This document shows, piece by piece, positions 27,466-35,556 of a stretch of 64,000 nt of DNA; the first letter of the stretch is position 1; each line of letters begins with the position of its first letter. Both the position numbers and the translations under genes were made by a program. Origin of the DNA: Marinicella sp. (GTDB lineage Bacteria; Pseudomonadota; Gammaproteobacteria; Xanthomonadales; Marinicellaceae); NCBI GenBank assembly GCA_965230295.1, contig OZ246001.1, positions 2,208,001 through 2,272,000 on the forward strand. The letters run 5' to 3'. The notes under the pieces are model-generated. The model searched no databases, was not told the origin of the DNA, and saw nothing but the letters and a program-made list of their open reading frames with translations.

Positions 27466-29292
27466 TTAGTAAGTGATGTTGATGTCAGTTGTGAAACCCT
27501 TATCAGTGAAGGTCATTGACATGACTTGGTTTTTCCAATACAGCATGCTTAAAGAAAATTCTTTTTGCATTTTCAGCTCCTCTTTAAGCTCAGCTGGCAT
27601 GTTGGGCATTTCCGCCATGGAGAAAATTTGTTCCAACAGGTCTTTGTAACCATCAGCGCTGGCAGAAAATGTCAGCAAGGCCGCTTGTCCTTCATCATTG
27701 ACCTTTTTACTCAATGCCCCACCGCCTTCGTGGCCCATTGAAAAACCTATGGTGTCAGAAGAAACAGCTGCATATAAATTGGCAATGTCCAAGGGAATGT
27801 CCTTACCGCTGATCATGGGTACTTTGTCTGCCAAAGTGATTAAAGAACCATCCGTTTTGATGTCAACTTCTTGTAATTGTGGCACCATCATTTGGGCCAT
27901 GCCTAACAAAGCTTCTGTTTCATCTACAGCTAAAAAGACTTGAGTTTTTAAACTTTCAATCATGTCTTTAGGGTTGGGGTTGGCAGCTGAGGCGGCATCC
28001 ATGTTCAGTTTCAGCTCATCCAAAGAAAAGTTAAAACCTTTGAAGTTACCGACAAAAGGTGGAATCGGTTGTGATAACTTGGCTTGAAATTCTGCCATTT
28101 TGTCATTCATGTCTGTGAAGTGTTCACAAGCATAAGGGTTTGCAACACGCTCACTGACGTATTTGCTCGCCAAATTCTTCGCATTGAGTAAATCAAAACT
28201 CATGCCAACTGACATCGCGGCATCTGGATTACCATGTGGTATTCTACCGGCCAATGTCGCCATGTCTTGAGACATTGTTGATTCCATTTCCCATACAAAT
28301 GATGCGTTGATGGTGTCGTTGGATAATGTTTTATTACCAGCCACCAAGCGCGGGGCATTGGCAAACATGGCTGAGATTTCTGTTTTGCAGGCTGGTGATA
28401 GCATGTTGTCTTCAATTTGCAGGAAATTCACCATAGCCGAGTTGTGTTTGGCTGGGTTGATGAAATGGTCAGCAATTTTTTCTATGTCTAAAACCAAGAG
28501 GTCATCCATGGTATAGCCATGGGCTTGCTTGACTTGTTGCATCAAAGAAGCATCACTGGCCAATGATGTTGTGGGTAGTGAGGTGCCTACTAATTGACCA
28601 ATCATTTGATCCTTGATCACAGATGGAGCGCCACTGACTACCAAGTAGTCATCATGGGTGGCGATGAATACAGTCATGTTATCGGCAGCCAGCTCTCTGA
28701 CTTGAACACCACTGACATCAGAAGTTGTGAACTGTACTTCAAACTGTGTTTGCAGATCAGCCAACATGGCCTCTATCTGGTGACCATCACTCAGTTTGAT
28801 GCGTATCACCGGAAATAAATCAACCATGTATATGGCCAATTGTGTTTCACCCATTTTCATGCCGATTTTGCCAAAATTCTCATCCAAAAACCATTGGTCG
28901 ACAAAGGTCTTGGCTTTTTGCTTCATCAGGTCACTTTTTGAAGGTTCTGCTGGGTCCGCAGAATCTGTATTCTCACCTTCTTCTAGTTCTGCTGCAATGG
29001 CATCGTAGGCATTGGATTTTTCAGCAAGGGCTTTGTCCATCATGAGGCGGATGTAATTAACAGCACCCTCCATGTTGGCCTCCATCACTTCAAGATAACG
29101 GTCAGGGTACTGTTCAGGGTTCAAGCCTGAAGTAATCAACAACGGTGTATCGGCTGGGATATAGGTCAATATTTTTGGTTGTTCACTGACAGCTGTTACC
29201 GTGCTGGCGGTCTGTTGGTTTTCTGTTTGTTTATCTTCACCACAAGCAACCAACAAGGTTGTGATCGAAGCAATTAGCATGAATTTTTTCAT
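27466..29292 (-). CDS. Hypothetical lipoprotein (608 aa)
   Basis: Lipobox LVAC; LTYIPADTPL start of mature domain; ATGA overlap with nfeD. Confidence 0.82.
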   Translation of the reverse strand: MKKFMLIASITTLLVACGEDKQTENQQTASTVTAVSEQPKILTYIPADTPLLITSGLNPEQYPDRYLEVMEANMEGAVNYIRLMMDKALAEKSNAYDAIAAELEEGENTDSADPAEPSKSDLMKQKAKTFVDQWFLDENFGKIGMKMGETQLAIYMVDLFPVIRIKLSDGHQIEAMLADLQTQFEVQFTTSDVSGVQVRELAADNMTVFIATHDDYLVVSGAPSVIKDQMIGQLVGTSLPTTSLASDASLMQQVKQAHGYTMDDLLVLDIEKIADHFINPAKHNSAMVNFLQIEDNMLSPACKTEISAMFANAPRLVAGNKTLSNDTINASFVWEMESTMSQDMATLAGRIPHGNPDAAMSVGMSFDLLNAKNLASKYVSERVANPYACEHFTDMNDKMAEFQAKLSQPIPPFVGNFKGFNFSLDELKLNMDAASAANPNPKDMIESLKTQVFLAVDETEALLGMAQMMVPQLQEVDIKTDGSLITLADKVPMISGKDIPLDIANLYAAVSSDTIGFSMGHEGGGALSKKVNDEGQAALLTFSASADGYKDLLEQIFSMAEMPNMPAELKEELKMQKEFSLSMLYWKNQVMSMTFTDKGFTTDINITY

Positions 29293-29750
29293 GAGGTTTT
29301 CTCTCCAGAAATTTCTACAATTAATACGGTTCCGTCAATGTCAGTGACTTTGACAGTGGTATCGACAGGTGCATCATTGCCTTTGACTTTCCAAGTCGAA
29401 TCATCCACTTTGATTTTGCCGACACCATTAACAATGGCCTTGCTTAATTGAAAGGACCTGCCAATGTACTGGTGACCACGTTTGTTCAAGGTTGGGCGGG
29501 TACTGGTCTTATCGCGTTTTTTATCATAGATGTACCAAGCAATCACTGACAAAATAGAGGTGGCAGTGAAAACCACCATTTGAGCCCCCCAGTCAATGCC
29601 AAACATCCATTGCAACAACGCAACCAGAAAGGCTGAAAAACTGACCCACAACAAATAATATGAGCCCACCAACATTTCAATCACCAATAACAACACGGCA
29701 GCGGTCAGCCAGTGCCAGGGAGTGAGTGCAATCAGAAAACTCATGATCAT
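29289..29750 (-). CDS. NfeD family protein (YbbJ-like)
   Basis: 3 TM helices + [19 protein letters not shown] fold. Confidence 0.92.
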
Positions 29751-30667
29751 GATGGGTCCTTGTTGGTGATGTCTTTGGCCAGTTCTGTGATACCAGCCAA
29801 TGAACCCAATACTTTAGTGGCTTCCATGGGTAAGATCATGGTTTTTTGATTGGGGGAATTGGCGAACTTACCAAATTCTTCCAGGTATTTTTGTGCCACA
29901 AAGTAGTTGATGGCATTGACATCTCCAGCTGCAATGGCCTTTGATACCATATGCGTGGCTTTGGCTTCAGCCTCGGCTTGTCTTTCACGCGCCTCAGCTT
30001 CTCTGAATGCGGCTTCCTTCAGACCTTCTGCTTCTAGGATGGCTGCTTGTTTCGAGCCTTCTGCTTTCAAGATTTCAGATTGTCGCTTACCTTCAGCTTC
30101 AAGGATTTCTGCCCGTTTTTCACGTTCAGCCTTCATTTGTCTGGCCATCGATGCCACCAAATCATGGGGTGGTTTGATGTCCTTGATTTCAATTCGTGTT
30201 ACTTTCACGCCCCAGGGTGAAGTGGCTTCATCAACCACGGCCAATAACCGGTGGTTGATTTCATCACGTTTGGATAATGATTCATCCAAATCCATGGCGC
30301 CCAGCACGGTTCTGATGTTGGTCATGGTTAAATTAAGGATGGCATATTCTAAACGGTTGACCTCATAGGCTGCTTTGACGCTGTCTAGGATTTGGTAAAA
30401 CACCACGCCATCCACCGTAACCACCGCATTGTCGCGGGTGATGACTTCTTGAGATGGGACATTGGCCACTTGTTCCATCATGTTAATTTTTCGACCAATG
30501 CGTTCAACAAACGGTACTTTCAAACCCAATCCTGGGGCAAAGACTCGTTTAAACTCTCCAAAACGCTCCACTGTATATTCAAAGCCCTGTGGAACCACCA
30601 CAAACACACTTTTCAGAAAAATGATGCCAAAAACACCCAGAATGATATAAAAAATATAATCTTCCAT
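29747..30667 (-). CDS. qmcA: SPFH/stomatin-like protein (QmcA/YbbK-like)
   Basis: [34 protein letters not shown]. Confidence 0.93.
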
Positions 30668-30775: not shown

Positions 30776-32185
30776 TTATGAGACGCTGTTCACTAATTGG
30801 TCCTGTGTCAACGGTTTACACAATATCTGATCAAAGCCAATGGCATTGAGCTTATCGATCAATGATTGACTTGGATTGGCCGTCATGATGATGGCTTTAT
30901 TCACCAGGGGTCTTAATACGTTGAATATTGAATCAACTTGTCCATCACCTAAATTGAAGTCAGTAATCAAGGTATCAAATGTGTGGCTATGTAACAGATT
31001 TTTGAGGCTGGAAATTGAGTCGGCGGTGCTGACTTGATGACCTGCCTGGGTCAGGTAAAATTCAAACAAATTCAAACAATCATGGTCATCATCTACCAGC
31101 AAAATTTTCTGACTTTCTGGTGTCTGGTGGTAGGCGATGGTGAATCTGAAACAACTGCCTGTTGCATCGCTTGTATGCAAATTCAAGCTGGCACCGATTT
31201 GTTCAGCCAGCATTTTTGAAATCACCAAGCCAATGCCATTTCCTTGGGAGGCACTTTTGCCTTCTCGAGACCAGGCGGTGAATAACTGTTTTTGGAAATC
31301 GGGGCTCATGCCACATCCGGTGTCAGCAACATCGATGTGCAGTAAGCCATCTTCTTTCATTGAACTGACAGTGATGTTACCAGTCTCTGTGTATTTAATG
31401 GCGTTACTGATCAAGTTGGTGAATATTTGCCCCCATTTGGTGCGGTTGGATGTTAAGACGGTGTTGTCATCCACGCAGTTATTCAGATCAAGGCCTTTGT
31501 TGTGAGCCTGGATTTTGAAATCATTGAACAATTCTTCGATGTATTCAGCGGGCTTAAAAGAGGTGTTGTGTTGGCTGGACTGTTGCTGATCATAGTCCAA
31601 CGTTTGAGCGATGATTTGTTCCAACTTTGCTACATTTTTGCTTATGATTCGGGTGGCTTGCTTGCTGTCGATGTTGGCCTCACCCAACAATTCATTGTAG
31701 CCTTTGATCGCATTCAAAGGGTTACCCATCTCATGTGACAATGCGGAAATGTAAAAAGATTTGGCCGAGTTGGCCTCTTTGAGCTCTTTATGGGCATTTT
31801 CCAGTGCTGAGAATAGGTATTGTAATCGGAGCTTCTCAATGGCTTGATCATGAGCCAACTGTTGCTTGTATTGGACTTGCTTATGTACCATGTCGATGGG
31901 AAACAAAATGAGGTATTTCTGCTGTTCAGACAGCAAGAAATGCACATCGAAAACCAGATCGTTGTGGTTGTAAAAAGGTATGAAGAAAGGGTCATTCAAT
32001 GATTCAGTGGCGAGCAAGGGTAACACGGTTTTAATTTCTATTGACGCATCAGTGAGGTTCAGGTCTTGACTGGCCTTGGGGTTGATGTGAATGATTTCAT
32101 TCTGCTCGTTGAGGGTGATGATCCCCCATTCAGCCGCTTGGTAATGATCATAAATGTGCTGCAGAATGGTTGCAGGTAAACTCAC
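30776..32185 (-). CDS. Soluble hybrid histidine kinase (PAS-like + HisKA + HATPase + receiver)
   Basis: LSHEMGNPL H-box, NLISNAIKY, DTGCGM, GNGIGL, LLVDDD..ITDFNL receiver; no TM helix. Confidence 0.92.
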   Translation of the reverse strand: MSLPATILQHIYDHYQAAEWGIITLNEQNEIIHINPKASQDLNLTDASIEIKTVLPLLATESLNDPFFIPFYNHNDLVFDVHFLLSEQQKYLILFPIDMVHKQVQYKQQLAHDQAIEKLRLQYLFSALENAHKELKEANSAKSFYISALSHEMGNPLNAIKGYNELLGEANIDSKQATRIISKNVAKLEQIIAQTLDYDQQQSSQHNTSFKPAEYIEELFNDFKIQAHNKGLDLNNCVDDNTVLTSNRTKWGQIFTNLISNAIKYTETGNITVSSMKEDGLLHIDVADTGCGMSPDFQKQLFTAWSREGKSASQGNGIGLVISKMLAEQIGASLNLHTSDATGSCFRFTIAYHQTPESQKILLVDDDHDCLNLFEFYLTQAGHQVSTADSISSLKNLLHSHTFDTLITDFNLGDGQVDSIFNVLRPLVNKAIIMTANPSQSLIDKLNAIGFDQILCKPLTQDQLVNSVS

Positions 32186-32658
32186 GGCAGTTGCTGTGAC
32201 AAGGCCAAAAACCCTGCTTCAACATTTTCTCCTGTTTTGGCGCTGGTCCAAAAACTATGCGTTGTCAGGTTGGCGATTGTATGGTCAAAATCGTCCTGCC
32301 AATTGATGTCGTCTTTAAGGTCAGATTTATTGATAAAACAAACGGCTGGCAGTTCTTTCAATTCTGGAGAGTCCTGGATGATTTGTTCTAAAGTAACCAG
32401 TGACTCTGGTTCTGTGGCATCCACCACATAAATGATGCCATGAGCACCTCTGAGGTAGGGTTTGTAGTGGTTTTCCTGCTCAAAACCAGCGATGTCCCAA
32501 ATGATGAATTTGGTGCGGTCATCAATGATTTTTGTGGCAATGGCCACACCCACCGTGGTTTGGTATTTTTCAGAAAAATGATTTTTAACATAACGATCAA
32601 CCAATGATGTTTTGCCCACCGCGAATCGACCAATCATACAAATCTTTTTTGAAATCAT
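32182..32658 (-). CDS. Rab/Ras-like small GTPase
   Basis: G1 GRFAVGKTS, G2 YQTTVG, G3 WDIAG, G4 NKSD, G5 TSAKTGENVE in 158 aa. Confidence 0.93.
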   Translation of the reverse strand: MISKKICMIGRFAVGKTSLVDRYVKNHFSEKYQTTVGVAIATKIIDDRTKFIIWDIAGFEQENHYKPYLRGAHGIIYVVDATEPESLVTLEQIIQDSPELKELPAVCFINKSDLKDDINWQDDFDHTIANLTTHSFWTSAKTGENVEAGFLALSQQLP

Positions 32659-34457
32659 TCCAATACCTCAAACCACACACCAATCTTGGTGAGATCAATT
32701 TCTTCTGTTGTGGTGTTGCATGTGGTGGCTTCGGTCAGCATGTCATTCGGTTTTAATCCATTTGATTGTAAGTAATTATAAACCATACTTAATCGCAATT
32801 GATTGTTCTCATTGCTTTGACTCACCGAACCTTGACAATCACTTTGGGCGATCAAGTTAATTTTGGCATTGGGATGAAAAACTTGTAACTGTTTGAGCTT
32901 GGTTACCAACAAATCTAATTGTAAACGATGTTCATCACCCATATTGACCACACTGATGAGGCTTAGGGAATTTGAATTGATGTGATTTCTGAGTTCTGAC
33001 GGCTCCACCAACTTGACTGCATCCGTGATGATCGGGCCGAATTTTTCAAGCTGAGCTGAATATGCGTTGTAAGTGACCTCATCACTGACACCTGCCAATG
33101 TGATACCATCACCTGTTTCAGTGACCTGAAGTGCAAGAGGCGGTGGATTGGCATGCAGGAAATCACTCAAAGTTTCGCTGTCGATCAAAGTGGTTTGGTC
33201 AGATAATTGATTAACCCCAGGCATCATTCGAATGAAATTCAACTCTTGTTGTATGTCAACGGATTCATCGATGGCCCCCGTCAAAGTGACTTCATTGTTT
33301 TCAGAATGAACTTTGATGTTGGGCTGACCCAACAGATTCGCAATGCGTTTTGCCACGATTTCATCTTGCAAAGATATATAGGGTGTACTGTTAATTACGA
33401 CATGGTCATCCAGCCCGGTAAACTCTGCCAAAGGGTCTTGTAAGCCGGTGGCTTGGAATGCATCGTTTTCATAAGTCAGGTCTTGCAGCACAAAGCCAGG
33501 TGTGGCAGATAATTGATTCGAAATGGCTAACTTGGCTGACTGGTGTTGGTAGCTTGACCAGGAGAAATAAACGATGATGGCCATGATGGCAATTAACCAA
33601 GGCCAATAATTGATGCCTTTAGGCTTGTCTTCATCTTCAGACTGGGATTTGGTTAACAGCAGTTTTTCCAATTCAGACCGCAGCTCAGAGTTCTGATTCC
33701 ATTTGGATTGATCTTCAAGATCTTGGAAGTAATTTAAATGAATACCTTCCAGGACGCCAGTCATGCTGTCCCTTAACCGGGCGGTTGGTGCACCTTTAAT
33801 GACTGCAGCAATGTTGGCTGTATTGCCGTGGATCAGCCAAACCAAATTGTCACCCAATTCAGCCGCTGATAGGCCTTCGCCGTCCTTGCTAACGGCGTCT
33901 TTGACAAAATCTTGGATCGCTGTCAACATCGCAGACATGGCTTCTTTATCTTGTAACAGTTCTTCTTCATGGCCGACGAATTCAATCAACATCCCTGAAT
34001 GGTTATCAATCAGAAAGACTTGTTGGACTTGATACTCGATGGTGTTATTAAAGACAATTTCTGCAAATGGAACGCCGGTGGTAAAAGCTTTCCAACGCCA
34101 CCTCAATGCTTTGGCAGAAATGCCCATTTCCACCGCTCGGTTTACATCGGCCACGAATCGGCGAATGGCCGAGGAGACAGATTTCCTGATCATTGGTCCA
34201 ATGATGGGTAGCAAAGCATCTATGAAGGTTTGCTTGTTGGCTTTAACCGCTCGAACATAAGACTTGGGGTCTATCTTGGAGAACTTTTTTTGAAAATTGG
34301 GGTTGGCTGCAATGACCAAGTCAGCAGCAGGGTCCAAAACTTCACTGACTTTTTCAGTGAGCTGTTGCTTGTCATGCAGTAATTTGTGTATGGCTTTTAA
34401 TTGAGCAAGTTCCTCACTCAGCAACAAGGCTTTGAGTTTTTGGCGGTCATCGCTCAT
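32655..34457 (-). CDS. Single-pass membrane protein with cytoplasmic longin/roadblock-like domain and periplasmic BON-like + OmpA-like domains
   Basis: TM at aa ~284-301; VFLIDNHSGMLI..AMSAMLTAIQDFV; VTLTGAI / ITLAGV BON-like repeats; AQSDCQGS..NQLRLSMVYNYL OmpA_C-like. Confidence 0.75.
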   Translation of the reverse strand: MSDDRQKLKALLLSEELAQLKAIHKLLHDKQQLTEKVSEVLDPAADLVIAANPNFQKKFSKIDPKSYVRAVKANKQTFIDALLPIIGPMIRKSVSSAIRRFVADVNRAVEMGISAKALRWRWKAFTTGVPFAEIVFNNTIEYQVQQVFLIDNHSGMLIEFVGHEEELLQDKEAMSAMLTAIQDFVKDAVSKDGEGLSAAELGDNLVWLIHGNTANIAAVIKGAPTARLRDSMTGVLEGIHLNYFQDLEDQSKWNQNSELRSELEKLLLTKSQSEDEDKPKGINYWPWLIAIMAIIVYFSWSSYQHQSAKLAISNQLSATPGFVLQDLTYENDAFQATGLQDPLAEFTGLDDHVVINSTPYISLQDEIVAKRIANLLGQPNIKVHSENNEVTLTGAIDESVDIQQELNFIRMMPGVNQLSDQTTLIDSETLSDFLHANPPPLALQVTETGDGITLAGVSDEVTYNAYSAQLEKFGPIITDAVKLVEPSELRNHINSNSLSLISVVNMGDEHRLQLDLLVTKLKQLQVFHPNAKINLIAQSDCQGSVSQSNENNQLRLSMVYNYLQSNGLKPNDMLTEATTCNTTTEEIDLTKIGVWFEVLE

Positions 34458-34464
34458 GCTTTAT

Positions 34465-34860
34465 TTACTCAGCAATTTGATCAGCCATTTTTCTCAACAG
34501 GTCTGACAATTCATTGCGGTGAGTCAGTCGCTGATCCAAGTCATTGGATTTATCTTGTAACTCACCCAGGATGCTGGCTTCGGTTTCGATGATGCGGTTT
34601 TTCAAGCTGTCTTCAATAGATTGCATGCGATCACTTTGATCGGCTTGTAAGTCGGTTAAATTTTGCGCACTTTTGTCTTCAGCTTTTTTCAGGTTGTTAC
34701 TCAGCTGCTTGTTCAAGGCTTCTATTTGTTTCTTGATGGCATTGAACTGTTTGTTAATTTCTGATTCCAATTGGGCAAATTTTTTCTCGATGTTTTTGGT
34801 CTGCTCACCAAACAGAATGTCTCTGATTTGATCCACTGAATCAATGTTTTTTTCTGACAT
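34465..34860 (-). CDS. Coiled-coil protein
   Basis: VDQIRDILFGEQ N-terminal motif, heptad-rich; GGAG RBS. Confidence 0.8.
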   Translation of the reverse strand: MSEKNIDSVDQIRDILFGEQTKNIEKKFAQLESEINKQFNAIKKQIEALNKQLSNNLKKAEDKSAQNLTDLQADQSDRMQSIEDSLKNRIIETEASILGELQDKSNDLDQRLTHRNELSDLLRKMADQIAE

Positions 34861-34878: not shown

Positions 34879-35556
34879 TTATACTTTAATCAGTCGATAA
34901 CCTTTGTGGTACACCGAGACCAATTTCCAACCAGTGCTGCCATCCAATGAAAGCTTCTTGCGCAATCGACTGATGTGGGTGTCTACGGTTCGGGTGGTGA
35001 TGGCTGAACTTTTGGTCCAGATGGTCTCTAATAGATAATCTCTGGATATCAAACGGTCCTGGTTGTTAAAAAAGAAATTGGCCAACTGATATTCTTTGGC
35101 GGTTAATTTCACTGAAGTTTGGTTGTAAGAAATGACTGTTTCTTTGGCGTTGAAAGTGAAGGGTTCAACGGAAACCAGATTATCCATACTTTGACTGTGT
35201 CGTCGATGTAAAGCTTGAGATCGGGCGATCAATTCCGCTTGCTTAATTGGCTTAACCAGATAATCATCAGCACCCTGGTCCAAGGCTTTAACCAAATCAT
35301 CTTCGTGATTGCGGGTGGTGGCAAAAATAACTGGTAGGTCTTTGTGCTCACTGGATCGGACCCAATTCAAAACTTCAAGACCGCTGATGACGGGTAAATT
35401 CCAGTCCAGTATCAACAGATCAGGATGCTCGTAGGGAAGCTTTTCGATAAAATCCCTGCCATTGCTGTAGCATTGACAGCTGTGGCCCTTTTCTTCCAAC
35501 CAATGCTGAACCAACTGGGCTTGATCCAAGTCGTCTTCTAAGATAAATACCTTCAT
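34879..35556 (-). CDS. OmpR/PhoB family response regulator
   Basis: ILEDD, LILDWNLP, GADDYLVKP, TRTVDTHISRLRKKL. Confidence 0.95.
   Translation of the reverse strand: MKVFILEDDLDQAQLVQHWLEEKGHSCQCYSNGRDFIEKLPYEHPDLLILDWNLPVISGLEVLNWVRSSEHKDLPVIFATTRNHEDDLVKALDQGADDYLVKPIKQAELIARSQALHRRHSQSMDNLVSVEPFTFNAKETVISYNQTSVKLTAKEYQLANFFFNNQDRLISRDYLLETIWTKSSAITTRTVDTHISRLRKKLSLDGSTGWKLVSVYHKGYRLIKV

Follow-up and report, generated by a model that had tools for sequence, protein, structure and literature searches.

On the reverse strand of the window, the 64,000-nucleotide stretch of a Marinicella sp. contig analyzed here, lies a gene cluster encoding a response regulator, a coiled-coil protein, a 600-aa membrane protein, a Ras-like small GTPase and a hybrid histidine kinase, in that order (Table 1). 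Homologs of the response regulator precede the module mainly in gammaproteobacterial loci, and homologs of the coiled-coil protein were detected by tblastn just upstream of the 600-aa gene's counterparts in many of the 80 loci compared. BLASTP of the coiled-coil protein (131 aa) against the 600-aa protein found no shared N-terminal motif (E 7.5). The GTPase start codon overlaps the stop codon of the 600-aa gene as ATGA, so that the two are translationally coupled. Its nucleotide-binding motifs are readily recognized (G1 GRFAVGKT, G3 WDIAGF, G4 NKSD, and G5 SAK), with G3 lacking the catalytic Gln. In 67 neighboring GTPases, DxxG is mostly followed by E, S, T, A, D or K, and a few have Gln there.

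Table 1. Genes and protein features of the Marinicella cluster, with positions in the window.
Feature	Position	Strand	Basis
OmpR/PhoB-type response regulator, 225 aa, first cluster gene here	34879..35556	-	Response_reg E 2.5e-26, Trans_reg_C E 5.9e-20
Coiled-coil cytoplasmic protein, 131 aa, conserved companion	34465..34860	-	weak coiled-coil-type Pfam matches only
600-aa longin / TM / BON / OmpA-like protein, whole gene	32655..34457	-	ORF; full-length AlphaFold2 mean pLDDT 85.0
N-terminal helical region, aa 1-127	34077..34457	-	AlphaFold2 helices 2-127, pLDDT only 50-86
Predicted longin/roadblock-fold domain, aa 128-273, encloses aa 142-268	33639..34076	-	predicted fold
Predicted single transmembrane helix, aa 283-305	33543..33611	-	hydropathy; part of AlphaFold2 helix 285-318
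Periplasmic beta-rich and BON-like repeats, aa 320-485	33003..33500	-	weak Pfam BON; AlphaFold2 fold
OmpA-like (peptidoglycan-binding type) domain, aa 486-600	32658..33002	-	weak Pfam here; family matches
Rup1-type Ras-like small GTPase, 158 aa	32182..32658	-	Pfam Ras E 2.2e-23
Hybrid histidine kinase/receiver, 469 aa	30776..32185	-	Pfam HisKA, HATPase_c, Response_reg
Module-specific N-terminal domain of kinase, ~130 aa, conserved Gln	31796-32185	-	alignment with other outputs

This arrangement matches a published one. All four parts of a Group 1 Rup (Rup1) locus are present in Marinicella, including a GTPase without the G3 Gln, and the neighborhood is the same four-gene module that Wuichet and Sogaard-Andersen presented in 2014, listing a "coiled-coil cytoplasmic protein" in Group 1 Rup neighborhoods (PMC4316618). 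The kinase occupies the position of the output protein. Output N-terminal domains from different loci align with one another and share one Gln, retained by 80% or more of the 30 sequences aligned. The remainder of the protein varies. The 28 outputs scanned comprised 15 of histidine kinase (HK) type, three sigma54 activators, two HD_5 proteins, one cyclase, one SpoIIE protein, three PAS-only proteins and three with another domain or none; each of the six named kinds is represented among the aligned outputs downstream of the GTPase in other loci. The parts of PMC4316618 that treat these outputs mention only HK and GGDEF/EAL, and the present set adds sigma54 activators, HD_5, cyclase, SpoIIE and PAS-only proteins.

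The 600-aa protein is predicted to divide into a cytoplasmic and a periplasmic half. Its helical N-terminal region carries a strongly conserved motif at approximately aa 81-91, in which P84, I90 and R91 are invariant in the family alignment, together with W120/R121. The preliminary description had placed a single transmembrane helix between the cytoplasmic domain and a BON/OmpA-type module, and this layout is supported by one hydrophobic segment and a C-terminal part that is BON/OmpA-like with weak Pfam scores. The segment (aa 281-299) is the sole one in the protein, and its 19-residue Kyte-Doolittle peak of 1.48 is marginal, lying below the classical threshold of 1.6. Beyond it, the full-length AlphaFold2 model folds aa 320-485 into alpha-beta-beta-alpha-beta units with pLDDT above 90, where G321, D341 and G394 are invariant; Pfam BON matches aa 369-423 at E 1.6e-4, below its cut-off, and is matched in 8 of 68 relatives. 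The OmpA-like domain of the Marinicella copy scores only 12.7 bits against Pfam OmpA (PF00691; E 0.17, cut-off 27.2), while 62 of the 68 relatives match that model. In searches with the family profile, solved OmpA-like and BON+OmpA chains were matched at E-values down to 9.4e-13. Within the family alignment, R555 is invariant, and G537, D540 and G543 come close to invariance; D540 and R555 are what we take to be the OmpA-like binding-pocket residues. The alternative that the OmpA-like domain is degenerate, its binding Arg having been lost, was rejected because R555 is invariant and D540 near-invariant.

Attention centers on the cytoplasmic domain, in which the preliminary description had read a longin/roadblock-like succession of strands and helices. 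Positions 33654-34034 on the reverse strand translate exactly to aa 142-268 of the 600-aa reading frame. Two AlphaFold2 models, one of aa 1-300 (68-row alignment) and one of the full-length protein (61 rows), reproduce that order in the same peptides: strands at 142-151 and 157-162, a helix at 171-190, strands at 198-201, 204-209 and 214-222, and helices at 226-242, 244-248 and 257-264. The predicted topology is beta-beta-alpha-beta-beta-beta-alpha-alpha, a five-stranded antiparallel sheet sandwiched by helices, preceded by a short extra helix at 131-139. Model confidence is high in the sheet and the C-terminal helices (pLDDT 90-96) and lower in aa 161-200, alpha1 included (73-77). A Foldseek search of the model, a check that had been suggested for the domain, gave two matches at E<=0.001, both of them Mon1-Ccz1 GEF chains. 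By structure comparison, the predicted domain is significantly similar to solved longin domains over its whole extent, and its best matches are found among longins and longin GEFs, not in MglB. The 50 structural matches listed included no GAF or PAS sensor. These comparisons suggest that aa ~128-273 form a longin-type domain, a predicted member of the longin/roadblock superfamily by fold.

At the sequence level, the likeness to longin/roadblock proteins that had been seen in the residue pattern escapes Pfam and is only weak by hhalign. Residues 1-300 of the 600-aa protein have no Pfam or NCBIfam match, and none of the 68 family members matches Pfam Longin or Robl_LC7 at E<=1. The PF03259 profile has no match in the Marinicella genome, compared with matches in 44 of 301 other genomes. 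Since no profile model matches, the domain is not filed under the Pfam Longin or Robl_LC7 (PF03259) sequence families. When the alignment of aa 128-275 was compared with 28 bacterial roadblock ORFs by hhalign, only weak matches resulted (Prob 8.3-10.2%, E 0.003-0.004), spanning 96-124 columns that keep the strands and alpha1 in register. A profile search against solved structures yielded no N-terminal-half match among the 60 matches listed, which fall on the OmpA/BON part alone. Look-alikes of aa 128-275 in the ESM Atlas were set aside as evidence, as the best score was 0.82 and all fell below 0.9, the level from which such a match counts as more than a lead; a cluster labeled "Roadblock/LAMTOR2 / Fuz_longin_1 22%" scored 0.75.

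The family is large and is distributed across many phyla, with 1171 matches at E<=0.001 in one search and 3136 clusters at 50% identity in another. Its most conserved part is aa 142-268, the cytoplasmic domain for which Pfam has no model. Residues L149, G155, S175, M177, A180, I181, F184, A217, G222, H240 and L267 are invariant there, and no Gln, Asn or Arg is.

The domain had further been described as the membrane-tethered partner of the adjacent GTPase, which is supported by synteny, by co-occurrence in genomes and by a predicted complex that outscored its controls. A GTPase homolog lies directly downstream on the same strand in 69 of the 80 loci, which come from Pseudomonadota, Acidobacteriota, Nitrospirota, Cyanobacteria, Planctomycetota, Gemmatimonadota, Desulfobacterota and other phyla. 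The median gap between the two genes is 6 nt, and in 18 loci they overlap by 4 nt. Of the 11 loci without a GTPase match, nine end before the downstream gene and two (L031 and L076) carry another gene. Across 301 Pseudomonadota genomes, the domain occurs in 34, the GTPase in 33 and both in 32 (of 35 with either), counts that overstate the support because related genomes are not independent. Two genomes (G046 and G200) have the domain without a GTPase match, and one (G273, 88% complete) shows the reverse. The Marinicella genome holds exactly one copy of each. A 761-aa relative with a Ras/Roc Pfam match (P0080) was considered as a natural fusion of the two proteins and rejected; its C-terminal part looks like the product of a frameshift that continues into the neighboring GTPase gene, and we take it as evidence of adjacency only.

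A complex of two copies of aa 76-275 with one GTPase was predicted from custom alignments in three runs, alongside three controls. The runs gave ipSAE values of 0.61, 0.45 and 0.61, and the best of the three controls gave 0.00. Among solved complexes, 116 of 157 attain the score mark, as do 2 of 215 mismatched pairs; the 2:1 set-up and custom alignments used here differ from that calibration. At least 75% of contacts are shared among the runs, with partner pLDDT of at least 72. On the longin side, the predicted interface comprises alpha1 (169-187) of both copies, the 153-157 hairpin and 251-254; on the GTPase side, it comprises residues 1-5, 25-42, 50-54 and 64-72, so that the contacts cover switch I, the interswitch and switch II. 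Alpha1, the core of the proposed interface, is the part modeled with a pLDDT of just 73-77. Conservation is higher in the interface than elsewhere in the domain (mean top-residue frequency 0.78 versus 0.58, permutation p 0.0005), and the interface includes invariant G155, M177, A180, I181 and F184 as well as near-invariant D170, T179, D183 and D187; Q169 and N254 are only about 50% conserved. The pass may reflect recall of solved complexes of the MglA-MglB or Mon1-Ccz1-Ypt7 type. Considering the models and the genomic coupling, the cytoplasmic domain probably docks the adjacent Ras-like GTPase.

Solved longin-based Rab GEFs are dimeric platforms, and some longin complexes are GAPs. Longin domains are described as characteristic of eukaryotic small-GTPase GEFs in PMC11016934. 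We consider it reasonably likely that the Marinicella domain dimerizes into a longin platform for binding and regulating the Rup GTPase, with that of a receptor-coupled GEF as its most probable role. In such a mechanism, the single transmembrane helix would anchor the longin domain on the cytoplasmic side of the inner membrane, with the BON/OmpA-like part placed in the cell envelope. Two domain copies would build a helix-faced platform, onto which switch I, the interswitch and switch II of the Rup1-type GTPase encoded next would dock. The longin/TM/BON/OmpA protein would serve as the receptor-like input of a four-part module that also comprises the coiled-coil protein, the Rup GTPase and an output protein, here the hybrid histidine kinase. 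An envelope signal would act on the platform, which, most likely as a GEF, would load the GTPase, and the GTP-bound form would then engage the output protein at the latter's conserved N-terminal domain. The outputs are interchangeable, a pattern typical of effectors, and the input role then falls to the membrane protein as the constant component. We tentatively favor GEF over GAP activity because the G3 Gln is missing from the GTPase, none of the invariant residues of the longin domain is a Gln, Asn or Arg, and the outputs carry a conserved Gln, for which a role as trans-acting GAP residue is proposed in PMC4316618. We infer physical binding, the 2:1 stoichiometry, the GEF direction and signal transfer across the membrane alike.

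Other explanations were weighed against this one. The longin platform could instead be the GAP of the Rup GTPase, or a dual GAP/GEF like MglB, by moving the switch loops or partly supplying a catalytic residue. A GTPase without a catalytic Gln needs a GAP somewhere, the predicted interface spans both switches, and the MglB roadblock dimer binds one MglA through switch I/II, with indirect GAP as well as GEF activity, as described in PMC11016934. Against this, the longin domain offers no invariant Gln, Asn or Arg, Q169 and N254 at the interface being only about 50% conserved; the conserved Gln is located in the output N-terminal domain, as PMC4316618 had noted. With the best structural matches also pointing to longins and longin GEFs instead of MglB, we regard a GAP or dual role as unlikely.

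Small-GTPase partners can also serve as anchors: Ragulator holds Rag GTPases, and SRX binds SR-beta. A passive anchor or scaffold, or an effector-type binder, would leave regulation to the coiled-coil protein or to the N-terminal helices with R91 and R121, and we judge this to be quite unlikely, since the predicted contacts fall on the nucleotide-responsive switches and not on a constant face of the GTPase. In its favor, the invariant residues P84, I90, R91 and R121 lie outside both the longin domain and the confident interface, and the module includes a conserved coiled-coil companion. Translational coupling and near 1:1 co-occurrence suit a regulator and an anchor equally. Sensor modules are often alpha/beta sandwiches of comparable size, and a profilin-like, GAF or PAS-type sensor unrelated to the GTPase, adjacent to it through shared regulation only, would agree with the lack of sequence homology to longin/roadblock families. 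Such a sensor is nevertheless highly improbable given the structural matches listed, which are free of GAF and PAS domains, the adjacency in 69 of 80 loci across phyla with often overlapping stop and start codons, and a complex model that passes where controls score 0.00 and whose interface coincides with conserved residues.

A longin GEF paired with a Ras/Rab-type GTPase is considered a hallmark of membrane traffic in eukaryotes and Asgard archaea. It is possible, although we propose this only tentatively, that the Rup1 module corresponds in bacteria to receptor/G-protein/effector systems, with an envelope receptor, a homodimeric longin GEF, a Ras/Rab-like GTPase and interchangeable outputs. 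If so, the outputs switched would be kinases, sigma54 activators, nucleotide cyclases or phosphodiesterases, and phosphatases. The longin-GEF and Ras/Rab-type GTPase pairing would then also be an old and widespread bacterial unit, which could be related by descent to the eukaryotic pairing or be its source via gene transfer. In the trees of PMC4316618 and bioRxiv 10.1101/2024.02.28.582541, no bacterial small GTPases lie closer to eukaryotic Rab/Ras/Rho/Ran than the Rup1 proteins. The proposed assignment also bears on the origin of the longin-GTPase partnership in eukaryotic trafficking. According to PMC4316618, no Rup1 GTPase had been characterized experimentally as of 2014, and our search of the open-access literature, with subscription journals outside its scope, found no later experimental study of a Group 1 Rup system. 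A longin-type constant membrane partner with a conserved docking face offers a concrete, testable regulator for these GTPases, and G155, M177, A180, F184, D183 and D187 are singled out as candidate residues for mutation. Because the family is large, spans many phyla and lacks a Pfam model, a correct fold assignment would annotate thousands of proteins now called "hypothetical" or "OmpA family".

While the gene module is already published, the longin/roadblock fold assignment of the Rup1 membrane partner appears to be new; no paper giving this fold was found in the same open-access search. In PMC4316618, the cytoplasmic domain is "Unc", of "unknown function", with no Pfam model and no regulator role, whereas here it is given a predicted longin/roadblock fold and a predicted docking face. 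Compared with the longin Rab GEFs (Mon1-Ccz1, TRAPP, DENN and Fuzzy-Inturned/CPLANE), it shows just 4-16% identity and no profile-level match. Those GEFs are heterodimers in soluble trafficking complexes, whereas the Marinicella-type domain is a predicted homodimer that one transmembrane helix fuses to a periplasmic BON/OmpA part. It also differs from MglB/Roadblock-LC7 (PF03259) with MglA and from CvnB with CvnD of the actinobacterial conservon, as the GTPase here belongs to the Rup family and not the MglA family, and extra C-terminal helices make the domain longin-like, unlike MglB/Roadblock-LC7. It is predicted to be membrane-tethered, whereas MglB is a Roadblock/LC7 domain for which the available text of PMC11016934 describes no membrane anchor. 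In the periplasmic half, the BON-then-OmpA-like order is the same as in Rv0899/ArfA-type proteins. The best sequence match to a solved structure is Rv0899 (2l26_A, E 9.4e-13), extending across the BON and OmpA-like parts. To our knowledge, Rv0899/ArfA-type proteins lack both a longin domain in the cytoplasm and a partner GTPase.

The cytoplasmic domain of the 600-aa membrane protein very probably adopts a longin-type fold, as judged from structure prediction. Two AlphaFold2 runs, one on residues 1–300 with 68 alignment rows (mean pLDDT 79.5) and one on the full length with 61 rows (mean pLDDT 85.0), gave the same elements: helix 131–139, strands 142–151 and 157–162, helix 171–190 (alpha1), strands 198–201, 204–209 and 214–222, and helices 226–242, 244–248 and 257–264. 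The order of strands and helices that the preliminary description had read from sequence for residues 142–268 is reproduced in both models. The match to longin or roadblock structures by AlphaFold and Foldseek that it named as support was found among longins: the top two matches, the two at E ≤ 0.001, are each a chain from the Mon1-Ccz1-Ypt7 GEF complex (E 2.3e-4, target-normalised TM-score 0.49–0.50). The structural matches otherwise comprise the VAMP7 and Ykt6 longins, AP and COPI sigma/mu subunits and TRAPP subunits, families that recur at the lower Foldseek ranks. The domain is classed as longin-type because its C-terminal helices align with longins; it also carries an extra N-terminal helix like that of roadblock domains.

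Sequence profiles give a different picture. Neither Longin nor Robl_LC7 from Pfam matched any of the 68 family members at E ≤ 1, and the PF03259 model had no match in the window's 4.0-Mb genome, versus 44 of 301 other genomes; the domain therefore falls outside these Pfam families. Comparison of the residue 128–275 alignment with 28 bacterial roadblock ORFs by hhalign gave weak scores (Prob 8–10%, E 0.003–0.004), although the strands and alpha1 lined up in register, and all leads from an Atlas search with the domain were sub-threshold. The likeness to longin and roadblock domains is one of modelled fold; the resemblance proposed earlier holds for the predicted fold, as Foldseek indicates, and in the sequence pattern it escapes Pfam and is weak by hhalign.

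Minus-strand genes and protein segments in the window
Feature	Position	Strand	Remark
OmpR-type response regulator	34879-35556	-	first in gene order
Coiled-coil protein, 131 aa	34465-34860	-	second in gene order
600-aa protein	32655-34457	-	third in gene order
Residues 76-127 of the 600-aa protein	34077-34232	-	helical stretch ahead of the longin domain
Residues 142-268 of the 600-aa protein	33654-34034	-	exact translation
Ras-family GTPase, 158 aa	32182-32658	-	Pfam Ras E 2.2e-23
Hybrid histidine kinase/receiver	30776-32185	-	last of five in gene order
SPFH/band-7-like protein (306 aa) and membrane protein (153 aa)	29289-30667	-	directly 3' of the kinase

The start codon of the GTPase gene shares an ATGA overlap with the stop of the gene for the 600-aa protein, and the genome carries a single copy of each gene. 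In the passages of Wuichet and Sogaard-Andersen (PMC4316618) that describe them, Group 1 Rup GTPases are Ras-like, lack the catalytic Gln of G3, and lie in a conserved neighbourhood with three further genes, one of them for a cytoplasmic coiled-coil protein. The output protein (HK or GGDEF/EAL) has an invariant Gln in its N-terminal region, for which a GAP role in trans was put forward as speculation, and the cytoplasmic domain of the membrane protein is left there without assignment. The window module, whose GTPase has the motifs GRFAVGKT, WDIAGF, NKSD and SAK, is exactly the Group 1 Rup module so described. Neither a fold for the Rup1 membrane-partner domain nor experimental work on any Group 1 Rup system was found in the open-access papers searched. 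The gene system was known already; the fold assignment and docking model of its 'unknown' domain, both predictions, appear new. The two genes beyond the kinase, labelled SPFH and NfeD from their sequences, are kept in place in Marinicella litoralis (L001), at 93% and 80% identity.

Coupling to the GTPase extends well beyond this genus. Species-representative genomes yielded 573 confirmed relatives, and the best 80 of these 573 loci, from Gamma- and Alphaproteobacteria, Acidobacteriota, Nitrospirota, Nostoc, Planctomycetota, Gemmatimonadota, Desulfobacterota, Rhodothermales and Binatia, were analysed. Directly downstream and in the same orientation, 69 of the 80 carry a homolog of the window's GTPase; the median gap is 6 nt, with the 4-nt overlap in 18 loci and more than 100 nt in six. 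Nine of the other 11 loci end before the position is visible, and in L031 and L076 an unrelated, convergently oriented gene occupies it. Among 301 Pseudomonadota genomes, many of them close kin so that counts are not independent, 34 had the domain, 33 the GTPase (E ≤ 1e-10) and 32 the two together; G046 and G200 had the domain without the GTPase, and G273, an 88% complete genome in which the GTPase gene lies close to the end of a contig, showed the reverse. L076 (L076:2879-4927), from a Desulfomonile MAG, keeps the coiled-coil gene and is possibly a rearranged module; upstream, a 421-aa protein has, on reading its sequence, the look of a PP2C/SpoIIE-type phosphatase. At L047 there are two Rup-like GTPase genes, the downstream one in the same orientation and the upstream one on the other strand; its label, uncultured Bifidobacterium MAG, looks doubtful, the OmpA module being of Gram-negative type.

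Direct binding of the domain to the adjacent GTPase is likely. Three predictions with two copies of residues 76–275 and the GTPase, for which separate alignments were supplied, scored 0.61, 0.45 and 0.61, against 0.00 for the best of three controls, custom alignments and the 2:1 set-up being unlike the score calibration. Of the solved complexes 116 of 157 attain this mark, and of the mismatched pairs 2 of 215 do; the pass here may stem from similar solved complexes already known to the predictor, for example MglA-MglB or Mon1-Ccz1-Ypt7. Contact agreement between runs was at least 75% and partner pLDDT at least 72. The confident interface comprises alpha1 of both copies (169–187 and 176–187), the beta1-beta2 hairpin (153–157) and 251–254 of the domain, and 1–5, 25–42 (switch I), 50–54 (interswitch, with invariant W54) and 64–72 (switch II) of the GTPase. 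Domain conservation is higher at the interface than elsewhere (0.78 vs 0.58, permutation p 0.0005); invariant G155, M177, A180, I181 and F184 and near-invariant D170, T179, D183 and D187 lie there. The predicted geometry is that of MglB-MglA in PMC11016934, with one GTPase on the dimer's helical face.

Just downstream of the GTPase, 28 of 50 ORFs were scanned: 15 are HK-type, three sigma54 activators, two HD_5 phosphodiesterase-type, one a nucleotide cyclase, one a SpoIIE phosphatase, three PAS-only and three unrelated or unassigned, a wider range than the HK and GGDEF/EAL outputs in the cited passages of PMC4316618. Their first ~130 residues (kinase residues 1–130 in the window) align across classes as what is, by alignment, one homologous domain; one Gln, kept in 80% or more of 30 sequences, corresponds to the 'invariant Gln' of the published description. 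With membrane protein and GTPase constant and the output exchangeable, the module has the arrangement of a receptor, a switch and an effector.

The domain is probably the membrane-tethered regulator of the GTPase, with GEF as its most likely activity. That interpretation, put forward in the preliminary description, is supported in part: synteny (69/80), co-occurrence (32 genomes) and the predicted complex (0.61 versus 0.00) speak for a membrane-tethered partner of the adjacent GTPase. Exchange activity is favoured because the best structural matches include longin Rab GEFs and because the membrane protein is the natural input. A GAP, or a dual GAP/GEF, would fit the MglB-like geometry, yet is unlikely: the longin domain has no invariant Gln, Asn or Arg, and the candidate trans-Gln sits in the output protein, both of which favour a GEF. 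A passive anchor or effector-type binder is improbable, and an unrelated sensor domain is highly improbable. Together, the fold assignment and the docking model define a variant of the longin/roadblock GTPase platform that is bacterial, membrane-tethered and probably homodimeric.

Residues 1–300 had no match in Pfam or NCBIfam, and the 600-aa protein as a whole only sub-threshold ones (BON, 369–423, E 1.6e-4; OmpA, 522–577, E 0.17). For the N-terminal 300 residues, 1171 of 6928 candidates qualify as relatives at E ≤ 0.001, the nearest named being Marinicella 'hypothetical' or 'BON domain-containing' proteins; among 1.84 billion 50%-identity representatives, residues 76–290 matched 3136 clusters at E ≤ 0.001, of which 423 also pass E ≤ 1e-30. 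In the 61-sequence full-length alignment P84, I90, R91, R121, L149, G155, S175, M177, A180, I181, F184, A217, G222, H240, L267, G321, D341, G394 and R555 are invariant, positions that place residues 142–268 in the best-conserved part. Helix 285–318, after the longin-type domain, holds the sole hydrophobic segment; the periplasmic half is modelled (pLDDT >90) as beta-rich and BON-like units ahead of an OmpA-like domain, its nearest solved sequence relative, among the matches listed, being the BON+OmpA protein Rv0899 (E 9.4e-13).

Residues 76–127 are very strongly conserved around P84-G87-P88-I90-R91 and W120-R121, are modelled with low confidence (pLDDT 50–73) and lie outside the confident GTPase interface; they may form a membrane-associated helix, serve as a contact for the coiled-coil protein or act as a catalytic element. 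One relative, P0080 (761 aa), has C-terminal Ras/Roc Pfam hits; its tail reads like a run-on, by frameshift, into the adjacent GTPase gene and is probably an artefact of assembly or gene calling rather than a genuine fusion. Three longer relatives (P0059, P0073 and P0107; 769–970 aa) carry the N-terminal helical segment in duplicate together with a long insert of coiled coil, and have two or three periplasmic 'PGIVV...G.RDPLA.DP' units before the OmpA-like domain.
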